Shown here: positions 16,836 through 46,203 of the stretch, in pieces
Layout: every line of letters starts with the position of its first letter
How positions within the stretch are numbered: position 1 is the first letter of the stretch
Assembly: GCA_963717075.1 (NCBI GenBank)
Contig: CAVQVI010000002.1
Span: forward strand, 30,402 to 94,401
Reading direction: 5' to 3'
DNA length: 64,000 nt
Source of the DNA: an uncultured Acidobacteriota bacterium
Lineage (GTDB): Bacteria; Acidobacteriota; Vicinamibacteria; Vicinamibacterales; CAVVIG01
Notes under the pieces: generated by a model
What the model was told of the DNA's origin: nothing
What the model saw: only the letters and a program-made list of their open reading frames with translations
Database searches by the model: none
Made by a program: the position numbers and the translations under genes

Positions 16836-17075
16836 ATGAAACGTACAAATCTCGTGATTCGGGATGAACTGCTGGAGGAAGCCGTCAAGCTGAGCGGTGA
16901 GCGAACATATTCCCGCGCGGTCGAACGTGCTCTTGAAGATTTTGTTCGGCGAATCAAGGCGCGTCGGATTCTCGAGTTAGCCGGGTCCGGTGTGTGGGAG
17001 GGTGATTTGTCGAGCATGCGCGACGATCGACGCGTACCCAAGCGTCAGCGATTGGCCAGTCGTGGTGCTCGTTGA
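16836..17075 (+). CDS. vapB: VapB-type antitoxin (DUF2191-like)
   Basis: MKRTNLVIRDELLEEAVKLSGERTYSRAVERALEDFVRRIKARRILEL. Upstream TTGACA(16799)-N17-TACACT and palindrome ATACAC-N5-GTGTAT reach the start codon. Confidence 0.75.
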   Translation: MKRTNLVIRDELLEEAVKLSGERTYSRAVERALEDFVRRIKARRILELAGSGVWEGDLSSMRDDRRVPKRQRLASRGAR

Positions 17076-17490
17076 CACGTCGGTTTGGGTCGAGGTGTTC
17101 CGACGAGGAACTTCATTTCATCTGGAATCCATGGCAGATCTGGAAGAGGTTGTTACGTGTTTGCCGGTGATCCAGGAAGTGCTGCAGGGTTTCCGCGACG
17201 AACGCGCGTTTCAACTCGCTCGTGAATCGATGTACGCATTCCCTGTCGTTGAGTCACCTCTTGATGCCGTGGTGTTCGATGAAGCGATCGCCTTATACCG
17301 CCGGGGGCGACACGCAGGATTGACAGTGCGATCAAGCGTTGATTGCCTGATTGCCGCGTGTGCGCTGCGCCATGGTCTAACGGTCCTCCATCGCGACCGG
17401 GATTTTGGCCGGCTTTCAAGGATTTCGCCGCTGCAAGCGCGTGACATCCGCACCACGGTGACGAGAGATGACCCGAAGGGAGGACAGTGA
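17062..17490 (+). CDS. vapC: PIN-domain ribonuclease toxin VapC
   Basis: VVLVDTSVWVEVF...VIQEVLQG...SSVDCLIAACAL...VLHRDRDF (four conserved acidic positions). GTG 17062 overlaps the vapB end. Confidence 0.8.
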   Translation: MVLVDTSVWVEVFRRGTSFHLESMADLEEVVTCLPVIQEVLQGFRDERAFQLARESMYAFPVVESPLDAVVFDEAIALYRRGRHAGLTVRSSVDCLIAACALRHGLTVLHRDRDFGRLSRISPLQARDIRTTVTRDDPKGGQ

Positions 17491-17633
17491 ACAATCAGTG
17501 AACAATTTGCTCCCGAACACCGGGCAATACGAGCTAACAGCAGAAGGCTAAACCACTGAAGAACCAACAAGATAGACCACCTGCATTTCTGTTAACCGGA
17601 GGGTTGCTGGTTCGAATCCAGCCTGAGGAGCCA
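17487..17633 (+). repeat. att-like unit U1: GTGAACAAT x2 arm, 85-nt spacer, tRNA-Asn(GUU) 3' half (17589-17633)
   Basis: CTGTTAA-CCGGA-GGGTT-GCTGG-TTCGAAT-CCAGC-CTGAGGA-G-CCA, with no 5' acceptor strand or D arm upstream. Arm repeats at 17487-17495 and 17498-17506. Confidence 0.8.
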
Positions 17634-17644
17634 ACTTTCTTAGG

Positions 17645-17785
17645 TCTATTCCGGTCGCATGGGTGACAGTTTATTCCGAGCGCATAGGTAACACTTTCGG
17701 GCCGAAGGGATTCTCGATCGGTTCCAGCCGGCACACCTCGTCGTCGAAATAGCCCAAATCGTACTGCATGAAGGTCACGAGCACC
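17645..17785 (-). pseudogene. IS481-family transposase C-terminal remnant
   Basis: ..VLVTFMQYDLGYFDDEVCRLEPIENPFGPKVLPMRSE*, starting 10 nt after the tRNA half. Confidence 0.7.
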
Positions 17786-17920
17786 CGAGGCGGCGCGAAC
17801 GCGTACTTACACCCCGACGCAGCCACGTGTAGAACGGAGATAGGACGGCGGCGAGAATACCGAGATGCGCGAGGACTCCGATCAGGAGCGCGCCGGTCGC
17901 AAGCGCCGCTGGAATTCCGA

Positions 17921-18479
17921 TCACGTTGACGGCGCCTCGGCAAGGACGAAGTGAAGGTCGTTCATCGCGACTGGCCCCCGGCTGACGACATTCAAGCCTG
18001 CATCTTCGAAGAGCACCACGACATCCGCCGGCGCGACGTGACCGTGACGATGAAAATGGGCGAGCAGCCCTTTGGGGGGTGGCGCGGTCGAAGTCGACGC
18101 CCAGGACGCGGCCGCCAGTCTTCAGCACCCTGCTGATTTCGCCAGCGCATTCCTGGCGCGTCGCCCTCGGCAGGTGGTGCAGCATCATCGTGCTGAGCAC
18201 CAAATCGAAGCGGTTATCCGCAAACGGCAGCCGCTCGACGACTGCCACCTGGAATGCGGGCTTCAGACCGGCTGTCGCGGCCTTCCAGCGCGCCCTGACG
18301 ACCATCTGCGGCGACGCATCGATGCCGACGACAGAACCTGACAGGCCGACGCGTCGAGCCGCGGCGATCGCGAGCGTCCCCGTGCCGCAGCCCACATCAA
18401 GCACCGACTCTCCCGGTTGCACGTGGGCAAGCTCCAGAAAGCGCTCGCGCAGCTCACGCTCTCTCCCTCGAGTCAGCAC
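17921..18479 (-). pseudogene. class I SAM-dependent methyltransferase, frameshift at G6 run 18074-18079
   Basis: VLDVGCGTGTLAIAAA (motif I). After ..VLGVDFD the frame shifts to PPKGLLAHFHRHGHVAPADVVVLFEDAGLNVV.. Confidence 0.7.
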
Positions 18480-18662
18480 CCAAGCGAGCAGGTCGTAGCG
18501 AGCGGCCCCAGTGTATGACGAAGCCCTTGGTATGTGGTGTTGCTTCCGGGTGCATCACGCTGCGCATTCCTTCAGCGTAGACTTGATCTGCCGCTGCGGC
18601 CGGACAGAGTCGCGCGATAGTGCGATACCGAACAATTCGGCCGCGATGTTCGTTTTTGTCTG

Positions 18663-19271
18663 ATGCGAGGAGGCCACTCAATGCCGCGTCAACGAACGCA
18701 CGATCGGCGCGTCGAGAAGACGCACCGCCAGCTGCGCGAGGCGCTGGTCTCGCTGATTCACGAAACGAGCTACGACGCGATCGTCGTCAGGGAGATTCTC
18801 GACAGGGCCGATGTCGGGCGGACGGCGTTCTACACGCATTTCAGCGGGAAGGATGCGCTGCTGGCCGACGGTATCACGCGGATTTTCCATGAGATGCCGC
18901 GACGCCGGTTTTCAACAGAGGAACGCCGTTTCGAGCAGCTGCTCTGGTTCAGCCTGCCAATGTTCGAGTACGTCGGAAGGCATCGTCACGAGAGCGAGGT
19001 CTCATGTGACGGGCATGGCCGCGCTGTCGTTCACGAACATCTTCGCCATGCGCTGATAACGACAATCGCGTCCGATCTGAAAGCGACACCGCTTGCCTGT
19101 CTGAAGCGTGTGCCGCCGGAACTTCTGGTTGAATACGTCGTCTCCACCTTCGTCCTCGTTCTGAACTGGTGGGTCGACGGCCCCAGTCCGCTGGCAGCGC
19201 GAGAAGTTGACGATCTTTTTCTCGCGCTTGTGTTGCCCTCGCTTCACGCCGCGGCGAGCGGGGCTGATTAA
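18663..19271 (+). CDS. TetR/AcrR-family transcriptional regulator
   Basis: HRQLREALVSLIHETSYDAIVVREILDRADVGRTAFYTHFSGKDALL (TetR HTH). Alternative start 18681. Confidence 0.8.
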   Translation: MRGGHSMPRQRTHDRRVEKTHRQLREALVSLIHETSYDAIVVREILDRADVGRTAFYTHFSGKDALLADGITRIFHEMPRRRFSTEERRFEQLLWFSLPMFEYVGRHRHESEVSCDGHGRAVVHEHLRHALITTIASDLKATPLACLKRVPPELLVEYVVSTFVLVLNWWVDGPSPLAAREVDDLFLALVLPSLHAAASGAD

Positions 19272-44575: not shown

Positions 44576-44715
44576 GTTACTGCTCCTCTCCACATGGTAT
44601 CATAGTGATACCAGGTCAGATGGAGTTCCAGTGGACCCAGCATCCGACTCTGAATGGAATATTGGGAATCACAGTCTGAAACTCGGCCGACGACTGTCTT
44701 GGTGAATTCGCGCGA

Positions 44716-44800
44716 AACGACACTGCAACTTGACGTCAGATCGTGCCTGACGATCTCCTACTTGATGTCTGGTTCCCGTCCGCGGTGAGCTGAAATCGCT
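44716..44800 (-). mobile_element. second IS6-family terminal remnant (IR plus ~60 nt)
   Basis: GACACTGCAACTTGACGTCAGATCGTGCCTGACGATCTCCTACTTGATGTCTGGTTCCCGTCC aligns with 2396-2457 in the same orientation. Confidence 0.6.
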
Positions 44801-44989
44801 CCGCCGGCGTGGAGACAGGCCGGAGCGATCGGCGACCTCAAGGTTCAGCGATCGCTCCGGCCGGCAGCGGCGGCTCGATGAGTCTGGCCCGTACTGTCCC
44901 ACAGCTCGGCCGAAGCGCCGGTTGTCGCGTCGTGTCGTAGACTCGCGCGGTGTCGATGCGTCGGCTCTCAACCGGTGCTCGTCGTTCTT

Positions 44990-45190
44990 ACTGGCTGATT
45001 GGATCGCCGGGAGCGGCAGGCGCTCGCGTACCTGCTAGAGGAGAATCGCGTCCTGCGCAGCTGGGTAGCAGCGGTTCCAGTTCACTGACGCCGACCGGCG
45101 TCGCCTCGCGATCCGAGGGTATCGGCTGGGACGCCAGGTCCTGCGTCAGATGGCGACCATCGTGACACCAGACACGATCCCAAATCGGGC
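44990..45190 (+). pseudogene. rve-family transposase N-terminal fragment
   Basis: ..ALAYLLEENRVLR.. /..[36 protein letters not shown], truncated. Confidence 0.6.
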
Positions 45191-45293
45191 AAAGATCCCT
45201 GCGCTGACGGAGTTATTGCAGGATACGACGGGGCAGAGACAGGCCCGGCACGACGGGTCTTATTGCAGACCAGAATCTGATACGATACAGGCC

Positions 45294-45536
45294 ATGAAGA
45301 TGGTCTCAATTCAAAGCCTGAAAGCGCGACTGTCAGCAGTGGTCGCCGAGGCGGAATCCGGAGAGACGGTCATCATTACCCGCCACAACGTGCCAGTGGC
45401 CCAATTGAGCCCCGCTCGGACGCAGTCAGTCCATCGCGGCAAGAACGCGGGGAGCGGCCGCATTAGAGCAGCGCTGAAGCGCGGGACAAAGGGCCGATAC
45501 TTGGAAATCCTTTTGGAGGACAGGGGCAACCGTTGA
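45294..45536 (+). CDS. Phd/YefM-type antitoxin (copy A)
   Basis: [40 protein letters not shown]. Confidence 0.8.
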
Positions 45537-45976
45537 GCGGTCACCCTGGAGAGGCCCAGAGCCACCGTCGGTTGTATCTCGATACGTCCGCCTATCTCTG
45601 TATCCTGCTCGCCGAAGAAGGGTCGGAGGGCCTCTCCAGGGAAACCGACGGGGCGGAGTTGTTGTCAAGCGTCATTCTGATCCTCGAGGCCAGACGAAAT
45701 CTGATCCGGTTGGCGAGGGAAGGCGCGCTCAAGCCGGAACAGTACAAGACCTGCATCGAGCGTGTGGAACAGGATGCGAGTCTCTTTGTGTTACGAGATC
45801 TGACGTTGGATCTTTGCCAATCCAACCTCATGCCTGCCGTCACGACGCCACGATCGCTCGACCTTGTCCATCTGCGGTCGGCGCTCTGGTTTCATGCCGG
45901 CGAACGGATCGAGCGTTTTGTCACTAGAGACGGGCCGCAGGAACAGGCCGCCAGGGAACTGGGTCTGCCGGTGTGA
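45533..45976 (+). CDS. vapC: PIN-domain toxin (copy A)
   Basis: [16 protein letters not shown]...ILEARRNL...[11 protein letters not shown]...[11 protein letters not shown] start overlaps the antitoxin stop. Confidence 0.75.
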
Positions 45977-46073
45977 ACCAGCCGGCGTGGTCTGCGGTGG
46001 TGATCCGCCAGCACTCGTTCCCGCCGAGAATTCGACGTGCAATCGTTCTACGCGGCTGATGCGAACTGGGACA

Positions 46074-46203
46074 GTGACCAATCAGTGAACAACTTACTCC
46101 GGAACACCAGGGAACACCGTGTCCCTACTGAAAACTCCATTCGTGCCGAGGACGTGATCAGTCGATGGTCGGAAGTGTGCTGCCATCGAACCTCAGAAGC
46201 GCC
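46074..46203 (+). repeat. decayed att-like unit U5
   Basis: GTGACCAAT/GTGAACAAC at 11-nt phase. The spacer is similar to U2. CCCTACTGAAAACTCCATTCGTGCC is shared with 56275-56299. The end GGAAGTGTGCTGCCATCGAACCTCAGAAGCGCC resembles the tRNA half only weakly. Confidence 0.45.

Follow-up and report, generated by a model that had tools for sequence, protein, structure and literature searches.

The stretch of DNA analysed here, referred to as the window, covers 64,000 nucleotides (nt) of contig CAVQVI010000002.1 (positions 30,402 to 94,401) from an uncultured Vicinamibacterales acidobacterium and has a G+C content of 62.7%. It carries a series of short non-coding units, numbered U1 to U5 from left to right, which in their complete form end in the 3' half of a tRNA-Asn(GTT) gene. 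Each of these units lies beside a toxin-antitoxin (TA) operon. The origin of the units and their association with TA genes are the subject of this work.

The tRNA-derived part of the units is a repeat of 45-48 nt (CTGTTAACCGGAGGGTTGCTGGTTCGAATCCAGCCTGAGGAGCCA), present in four copies on the forward strand only, which spans tRNA-Asn(GTT) from the anticodon loop to the CCA end. A 45-nt core is identical among the four copies, which places them among the direct repeats of tRNA attachment (att) sites. In U1-U3, a conserved segment of ~105 nt precedes the tRNA half and brings the complete unit to ~150 nt. The layout is uniform and consists of two TGAACAAT direct repeats 11 base pairs apart, a conserved spacer of ~85 nt, and the tRNA-Asn half. 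The paired arm repeats read GTGAACAATCAGTGAACAAT in U1 and U2 and CTGAACAATCTCTGAACAAT in U3, and the arm repeat GTGAACAATCAGTGAACAA (CTGAACAATCTCTGAACAA in U3) begins at 17487, 23428, 28181, and 46074.

The window was then searched with a profile made from 53 independent units of other genomes. This profile recovered U1-U3 as complete units (E values of 1e-43 to 1e-49), U4 by its core only, and U5 by its arm only. The homology proposed among the units in the original prediction thus holds in full for U1-U3, whereas U4 carries the same core behind a different arm and U5 has the arm without a core. The left part of U4 (170 nt, 41923-42092) has no homology to the U1-U3 arm. It belongs to a second arm class ('type II', GTTGCCCTTTTCTTGCCCTTT…GCGGCTAA…TTCCGCC), which U4 has in common with three loci of other genomes (L005 ~7084, L036 ~3647, L048 ~1799; L numbers denote loci outside the window). 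The presence of a type II arm on the same tRNA-Asn core implies a second element family at one site. A truncated type II arm is found to the left of U1 (Table 1) and is a possible left limit of an islet of ~0.95 kilobases (kb) that holds only VapBC. Indeed, the stretch from 16536 to U1 contains VapBC and nothing else, and may be a TA-only islet.

ARAGORN called no tRNA gene in the window, and no Rfam family was matched there at the gathering threshold. When 24 aligned units were folded with RNAalifold, the tRNA T-arm was the only structure obtained, the arm being left without predicted structure, and covariation in the T-arm tracks the tRNA variants of the hosts. A reading of the unit as an RNA structure was rejected because the fold shows the T-arm only. 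The conservation of the arm is best read as that of protein-binding DNA.

Some sequences near the units are of separate interest. A sixth, decayed unit (U6) had been proposed, yet it obtained no score with the 53-unit profile in the window search and resembles only non-unit sequence to the right of U5. The two regions concerned (46110-46230, right of the U5 arm, and 56262-56380) have ~120 nt in common and form two hairpins whose stems differ compensatorily; they match no Rfam family and do not constitute a unit. A 90-nt repeat, 90% identical, links 27253-27342, ~100 nt upstream of the third TA operon, with 46291-46380, just right of U5. Inside the islet between U1 and U2, the T-arm and acceptor end of another tRNA (…GCTGGTTCGAGTCCAGCCGGGCCCCCA; 21524-21595, reverse strand), uncalled by ARAGORN, may be the att scar of a different element.

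The TA operons beside the units are listed in Table 1. The distances claimed for them in the original prediction were recovered without change, from the overlap of the vapC stop codon with the first repeat of U1 to the gap of 106 nt at U2. The two-gene architecture of type II TA systems is displayed by one VapB/PIN pair, three Phd/PIN pairs, and one RelE/ParE-family toxin with an unmatched partner. Family models confirmed the earlier calls for VapB/VapC, the Phd antitoxins, and the HigB-type toxin. They gave no match for the presumed HigA (22629-22952) or for the fifth toxin (45533-45976), which pairwise similarity alone relates to the PIN protein at 27707 (28% identity). As had been claimed, the pairs are not copies of one another. 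The PIN proteins of the window are 27-28% identical, and the five operons have no nucleotide similarity among them, so that recent duplication of one segment does not account for the association. The exception lies outside this set. A 97.7% identical copy of the fifth TA pair occupies 61053-61735, within a stretch (61053-61874, forward strand) in which the copy and 80 nt of duplicated flank are immediately followed by an insertion sequence (IS) remnant of the IS481 family, with no unit between.

A census of small open reading frames (ORFs) over the whole window counted five PIN, four Phd, one FitA-like, and one VapB protein, so the window is rich in TA genes overall. Proximity was assessed by random placement of eight TA loci in 64 kb in 200,000 trials. 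All five units have a TA end within 110 nt, a result that none of the trials reproduced (0/200,000; maximum count 3). An additional FitA-like/PIN operon (43917-44593, reverse strand) lies more than 1 kb from any unit. The 60 nt upstream of this operon (44726-44790) are repeated, at 85-100% identity, at 2404-2465 beside an ORF at 1791-2375, which suggests a further related operon close to the start of the window.

Table 1. Positions of units, toxin-antitoxin genes, and element remnants in the window, and of the parts of a complete element found elsewhere (locus given where it is not the window)
Feature	Position	Strand	Evidence or remark
Truncated type II arm, without core	16444-16535	+	93% repeat of 41921-41975; aligned with U4, L005, L036, L048
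VapB	16830-17075	+	PF09957, 4e-10
VapC/PIN ORF	16990-17490	+	PF01850, 8e-19; stop codon inside first arm repeat of U1
U1, complete attR-type unit	17482-17633	+	profile E = 4e-43; repeat families D2, D4, D6
U1 arm repeats	17487-17508	+	followed by conserved spacer
U1 tRNA-Asn 3' half	17589-17633	+	
tRNA-Asn half copies	17586-17633, 23527-23574, 28281-28328, 42087-42134	+	repeat search
IS481-family transposase C-terminal remnant	17668-17781	-	abuts U1 core; tblastn 87% to L028 protein residues 344-381; NF033577
Putative HigA antitoxin	22629-22952	-	partner of HigB-type toxin; operon start 106 nt from U2
HigB-type RelE/ParE toxin	22959-23321	-	TIGR02683, 81 bits, above cut-off
U2, complete attR-type unit	23426-23574	+	profile E = 7e-43
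Second IS481-family remnant	23613-23795	-	placed relative to U2 core as at U1; tblastn 90% to L028 residues 312-372
Phd	27441-27710	+	PF02604
PIN	27707-28147	+	PF01850; ends 33 nt before U3
U3, complete attR-type unit	28177-28328	+	CTGAACAAT arm subtype; profile E = 6e-49
Tyrosine-integrase fragment (internal part)	36708-36932	-	tblastn 67% to L013 integrase fragment; translation
Tyrosine-integrase C-terminal remnant	39045-39314	-	70% identity to L153 integrase residues 360-415
Phd	41172-41459	+	PF02604
PIN	41453-41917	+	PF01850; ends 6 nt before U4
U4, type II arm and tRNA-Asn core	41923-42134	+	core at 42090-42134, E = 4e-16
Phd	45294-45536	+	TIGR01552, PF02604; also delimited as 45150-45536
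PIN-like toxin	45533-45976	+	ends 97 nt before U5 repeats
U5, arm repeats and spacer start, without core	46068-46129	+	profile positions 4-65, E = 9e-10
Third IS481 transposase remnant	61812-61874	-	
Complete element, tRNA-Asn	L086 800-874		
Complete element, integrase			415 amino acids; Phage_integrase; opposite strand to tRNA
Complete element, excisionase-like protein			HTH_17
Complete element, zinc-ribbon protein			
Complete element, BrnT	L153 2910-3197		
Complete element, BrnA	L153 3241-3414		
Complete element, P arm and tRNA half	L086 4256-4427		

The same unit is widespread in related bacteria. A degenerate whole-unit pattern was scanned against species-representative genomes, metagenomes, and IMG/VR viral contigs. 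It returned 52 loci in the species-representative genomes, nearly all of them Acidobacteriota and many named Vicinamibacterales, with several genomes holding more than one, and at least 120 loci in metagenomes. Genomes and soil metagenomes together provide more than 160 unit loci. When the window is compared with other genomes, homology begins sharply at the first arm repeat.

In eight of these loci (L016, L022, L028, L029, L033, L052, L086, L159), an intact tRNA-Asn gene precedes the unit on the same strand at a distance of 0.8-6.3 kb. This identifies the unit as the distal junction of an integrated element (attR), composed of a P arm and a displaced tRNA 3' half. The other side of the cores is occupied by tyrosine integrases or their remnants, convergent with the tRNA; in L029, a 96-residue integrase remnant abuts the tRNA. 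Full-length PF00589 or XerC/D-like integrases stand beside the core in L021, L034, L086/L153, and L087. These observations bear out the earlier view of the units as att-type junctions. They also correct the position given there for the TA pairs. The pairs had been assigned to the tRNA-proximal end, and actually lie at the attR (P-arm) end, farthest from the intact tRNA and the integrase.

The C-terminal codons of the integrases (…SELFxIVx…) are themselves the reverse complement of two TGAACAAT repeats, both in L034 (3944-3976) and at the start of L153, so that arm-type repeats occur on both sides of the core. The window contains the same feature within its C-terminal integrase remnant, where the codons for 'ELFRIVQ' (39178-39200; profile match 39174-39205) supply the two repeats, which we read as putative P'-arm sites. 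Possible relic cores noticed by eye beside the integrase remnants, at ~36735-36756 and ~39119-39140, were undetected by the profile. In one genome, the T-stems of the units occur as GCAGG/CCTGC, as GTAGG/CCTAC, and as the hybrid GCAGG/CCTAC (L033; parental types in L005 and L036), which points to a putative exchange inside the core.

Complete elements define the position of the TA pair more closely. An element of 3.4 kb, seen in L086 and L153 together, runs from the tRNA-Asn through the integrase gene (int), an excisionase gene (xis), the gene of a zinc protein, and BrnTA to the arm and the tRNA half. Its gene positions are given in L153 coordinates, where the domains were scanned. L153 comes from another sample, has the core at both ends, and encodes an integrase 100% identical to that of L086. 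In L087 (2.9 kb), the integrase lies at one end, and an antitoxin and a ParE-like toxin lie beside the P arm at the other. The TA pair of the complete elements is 15-30 nt from the arm. Given this order from int and xis to the TA pair, a circular form would have attP between the TA pair and int. Two contigs (L087 and L153) end in the same 37-38 nt of the core, and may each be a circle or an assembly break.

The preference of TA genes for one side of the unit was measured on ORFs of at least 55 residues with coding-like G+C content at third codon positions, located wholly within 700 nt of a unit on either side and scanned against Pfam as sets. All-against-all clustering of the neighbouring ORFs gave small clusters only, because the TA families are too diverse, and aggregated Pfam counts were therefore used. 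One TA pair was counted per unit, and the per-unit numbers are estimates from these family counts. Upstream of 45 units in genomes, 100 ORFs included HicB (5), HicA (3), DUF433 (3), MazF (2), DUF4160 (2), DUF2442 (2), PIN (1), and ParE (1). The 71 ORFs downstream of 44 units included three toxins, besides integrase and rve fragments, and a control set of 150 ORFs more than 1.5 kb away included three of TA type. In metagenomes, 150 ORFs upstream of ~73 units comprised PIN (7), HigB (4), ParE (3), RES (2), HicA (2), BrnT (1), MazF (1), and RelE (1) together with matching antitoxins; 100 ORFs downstream of 64 units comprised three toxins, along with integrases and rve.

Expressed per unit, TA pairs were found upstream and downstream at ~14/45 versus 3/44 in genomes and at ~21/73 versus 3/64 in metagenomes. 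The combined figures of ~35/118 (~30%) and 6/108 (~6%) correspond to an odds ratio of 7.2 (p = 1.6e-6), an approximately sevenfold enrichment upstream. TA neighbours are thus not absent more often than chance predicts, and their many families support the claim that the TA pair is an exchangeable occupant of its position. The families beside units are HicAB, HigBA, ParDE, RelE, MazF, PIN, BrnTA, RES, DUF433, and DUF4160/DUF2442, and outside the window their genes lie 20-105 nt from the first repeat in both orientations. Units with non-TA neighbours occur too. Different genomes have the block of TA pair, arm, and core in common, with sharp limits at -525/+147 for HicBA, -597/+147 for ParDE, and -788/+147 for VapBC.

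Taken together, the units are probably attR junctions produced by serial integration of small tyrosine-integrase elements at tRNA-Asn(GTT), with the TA pair as an addiction module and the window as a decayed tandem array. Such elements would have integrated one after another into the 3' half of the tRNA-Asn(GTT) gene of a Vicinamibacterales-type acidobacterium. The first part of the unit would be the P arm, with two putative TGAACAAT arm-type sites one helical turn apart, to which the integrase may bind, and the ~85-nt spacer. The second part would be the core, a 45-nt duplicate of the tRNA extending from its anticodon loop through CCA. A full element would start with the core and the P' arm, whose two TGAACAAT sites fall within the 3' end of int, continue with int, xis, and a few genes, and close with the TA operon, the P arm, and a second core. 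Once such an element is excised as a circle, attP would have the TA pair on one side and the integrase on the other. As an addiction module, the TA pair would penalise loss of the element through excision or deletion, and the TA-plus-junction end would persist while integrase and cargo decay. Repeated integration at one tRNA, combined with decay, may then give rise to tandem arrays. The window would be one such array, with at least five junctions, integrase remnants only, accessory genes and pseudogenes, and IS481 fragments. The role of the TA pairs as addiction modules would be expected from what is established for type II TA systems of mobile elements, and also from the precedents cited below. 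If they do act in this way, the growth of arrays and the survival of the TA-plus-junction ends would be explained.

Several observations weigh against this interpretation. The window holds neither an intact tRNA-Asn nor an intact integrase by which its array could be anchored or shown to be active. Elsewhere, a recognisable TA neighbour accompanies only ~30% of units by the above estimate. Upstream of the type II arms in L005, L036, and L048 there is no obvious TA pair, so the link with TA genes is documented mainly for the type I arm. The core-bounded contigs L087 and L153 may be assembly breaks at repeats rather than circles. Genes for conjugation or mobilisation were seen neither in the window nor in the complete elements of 2.9-3.5 kb, phage genes were likewise not seen, and the scan of IMG/VR viral contigs with the unit pattern gave no match, which lends no support to a phage origin. 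Moreover, addiction alone leaves unexplained why different TA families occupy one place beside near-identical arms.

In an alternative explanation, TA pairs are themselves cassettes. Mini-elements of 0.8-1.3 kb, each composed of P' arm, TA pair, P arm, and core, would be captured, stacked, and shuffled at tRNA-Asn in an integron-like manner by an integrase acting in trans. The TA slot would be accounted for by the TA pairs being the cassettes, and the array of the window would be an old, partly decayed example. In favour of this alternative, a tRNA heads a series of six att sites within 11 kb in JANNRD010000455 (L008 and L002, contiguous). Four islets of this series (1.0-1.3 kb) contain a TA pair only. 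Three of them hold RelE, PIN, and HicBA with antitoxins, and the fourth holds a candidate, TA-like pair of small ORFs. All four keep the same P' arm of ~70 nt, ending at one base. Further TA-only islets are present in L016 and L112, and across genomes such islets measure 0.8-1.3 kb. At ~90% identity, L002 and L052 have two cassettes in different order, and three of the six downstream TA matches (L003, L047, L112) directly precede a further, partial unit. On the other hand, most loci show the block of TA pair, arm, and core without a core on the left, and in this form it resembles the conserved terminus of a longer element. Some complete elements encode int and xis themselves, excision products were not observed, and the islets of the window are mostly 4.6-13.6 kb long with other cargo. 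We regard the cassette explanation as possible but rather unlikely.

Comparison with integrons is instructive in this regard. Chromosomal integrons, such as the Vibrio superintegron, contain tandem units of ~1 kb with a TA pair and a recombination site, which are thought to stabilise the array. The acidobacterial islets are functionally analogous to such cassettes, being short tandem units with one TA pair and one recombination site. Unlike in integrons, the site is a tRNA-derived core with arm-type direct repeats and not a folded attC, and no common promoter was found. The integrase targets a tRNA and is convergent on the core, whereas IntI is divergent from attI. The units do not belong to the integrons, given that they fold as a T-arm only and that the integrases match generic XerC/D-like models far below integron cut-offs.

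Other features of the arrays deserve mention. Adjacent cores within one locus are 0.8-8.7 kb apart, and a separate class is spaced at ~100 nt. In six loci (L006, L015, L056, L097, L115, L149), a complete unit is followed after only ~90-115 nt by a partial second core, from T-arm to CCA. The tRNA at the head of the JANNRD010000455 array (L008 3939-4013; JANNRD010000455.1 19939-20013) has a GAT anticodon and a mismatched anticodon stem and is called tRNA-Ile by ARAGORN; it may be a damaged attL tRNA or an error in a metagenome-assembled genome. The 5.35-Mb contig CAWEZL010000001.1 (L033, L005, L036) bears at its start both a tRNA-Asn (7.7 kb) and a unit (1.4 kb), and has four further att sites at 5.29-5.30 Mb, ~50 kb before its end. 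If this contig is circular, the array would extend over ~67 kb, a scale similar to that of the window.

In the window, the islets 17634-23574 and 23575-28328 lack an integrase, and thus have the form of cis-mobilizable elements (CIMEs), flanked by att sites and without recombination or transfer genes. Their cargo comprises a methyltransferase, TetR, an ECF sigma factor, a glyoxalase, a DLH hydrolase, and gene fragments. Across the window, the islets encode a methyltransferase, TetR, ECF sigma factors, a glyoxalase, short-chain dehydrogenases, an alcohol dehydrogenase, a dienelactone hydrolase, and a molybdopterin oxidoreductase, together with a split TonB-receptor gene, other fragments, and IS481 remnants. 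Three paralogous genes of 360-390 residues, all on the reverse strand (39408-40505, 46419-47507, 52108-53292; repeat families D3 and D5), have no Pfam match. A recurrent position is also evident for IS481-family genes and remnants, which end 7-25 nt past the CCA of the tRNA half in three places of the window and at no fewer than 14 units of other genomes (L028, L041, and L165 among the loci), often at a CTAG/TNAG motif. This reflects either a target preference of the IS just 3' of the core or one insertion co-inherited with the junction.

The many remnants in the window and related loci (integrase, IS481, the split TonB-receptor gene, Metallophos, Gate) would also be left by a pure decay ratchet, in which random deletion of DNA unprotected by addiction brought the TA pairs to the junction. 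Such an origin is improbable, as the apparently undecayed complete elements (L086/L153 and L087) already have the TA pair close to the arm, the TA-to-arm spacing is identical across genomes for each module, and random deletions would often have taken the arm too. Functional coupling at the RNA level, whereby the tRNA half, or the whole unit, would share a transcript with the toxin and act as decoy, substrate, or regulator of VapC-type RNases, was raised in part by the original prediction and is scarcely credible: VapC toxins do cut tRNAs in the anticodon loop and the toxin gene reads toward the unit in four window cases, but the neighbouring toxins include HicA, HigB, ParE, RelE, MazF, BrnT, and RES, many of these families not being tRNA-cleaving, in both orientations, the fold and its covariation are those of the host tRNA T-arm, Rfam offers no match, and the unit also stands beside non-TA genes.

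Serial integration with TA-stabilised junctions, the interpretation preferred here, has precedents in other bacteria. Tandem accretion and CIMEs, including those related to ICESt1 of Streptococcus thermophilus, have been reviewed (PMC5704250). CIME arrays grow as elements integrate site-specifically, one after another, at the 3' end of a single target gene; their members have lost integrase and transfer genes and kept their att sites, and TA systems are described as maintenance modules (PMC5704250). The window array resembles them in its single target 3' end and its integrase-less members with att sites (PMC5704250). It differs in its host phylum (Acidobacteriota), its tRNA-Asn target, its element size of 0.8-14 kb, the lack of any conjugation or mobilisation genes seen, and the fixed position of the TA pair beside the P arm.

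A second precedent is GI21, located within CGI48 of Shewanella putrefaciens CN-32, which has integrase and excisionase by attL and hipAB by attR (PMC8978831). Its ends are conserved and its middle is variable, hipAB stabilises the island, and the whole forms a composite or tandem island at a tRNA gene (PMC8978831). The acidobacterial elements have the same polarity, with int and xis at the attL end and the TA pair at the attR end. GI21 is a single element that carries one TA family and whose att site, 9 bp long, lies in yicC (PMC8978831), whereas the present family comprises more than 160 junctions with defined arm repeats, a tRNA core of 45 nt, and TA pairs from many interchangeable families. 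Asparagine tDNAs are also integration hotspots for several genomic islands in Klebsiella pneumoniae, as in the acidobacterial case (PMC4891358). Those islands are large, associated with virulence, and found in an unrelated phylum, and the abstract of that study does not report a TA-slot architecture (PMC4891358).

The suggestion that the architecture was undescribed needs correction, given the int-at-attL and TA-at-attR layout of GI21 (PMC8978831) and the tandem accretion already on record (PMC5704250). Both features are known, and the system is a twist on genomic-island biology, not a new kind. Our literature search found no paper on a tRNA-Asn/TA junction family of Acidobacteriota. What is new is the phylum, the arm-plus-core signature in more than 160 loci, the measured enrichment and interchangeability of TA pairs at one position, and the TA-only two-arm islets within arrays.

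Acidobacteriota are among the most abundant soil bacteria, and their mobile elements are barely described. The ~150-nt unit of arm and tRNA-Asn half provides a searchable mark of integration hotspots, and of arrays tens of kb long, in many uncultured genomes. It is of practical use for marking the borders of islands in metagenome-assembled genomes, and new TA families can be located by their position beside it. Should the TA-only islets turn out to be mobile, few if any known integrative selfish elements would be smaller, and the islets would represent a second, independent route to TA cassette arrays beside integrons. In addition, the family offers a clean natural test of whether addiction modules decide which parts of mobile elements survive decay.

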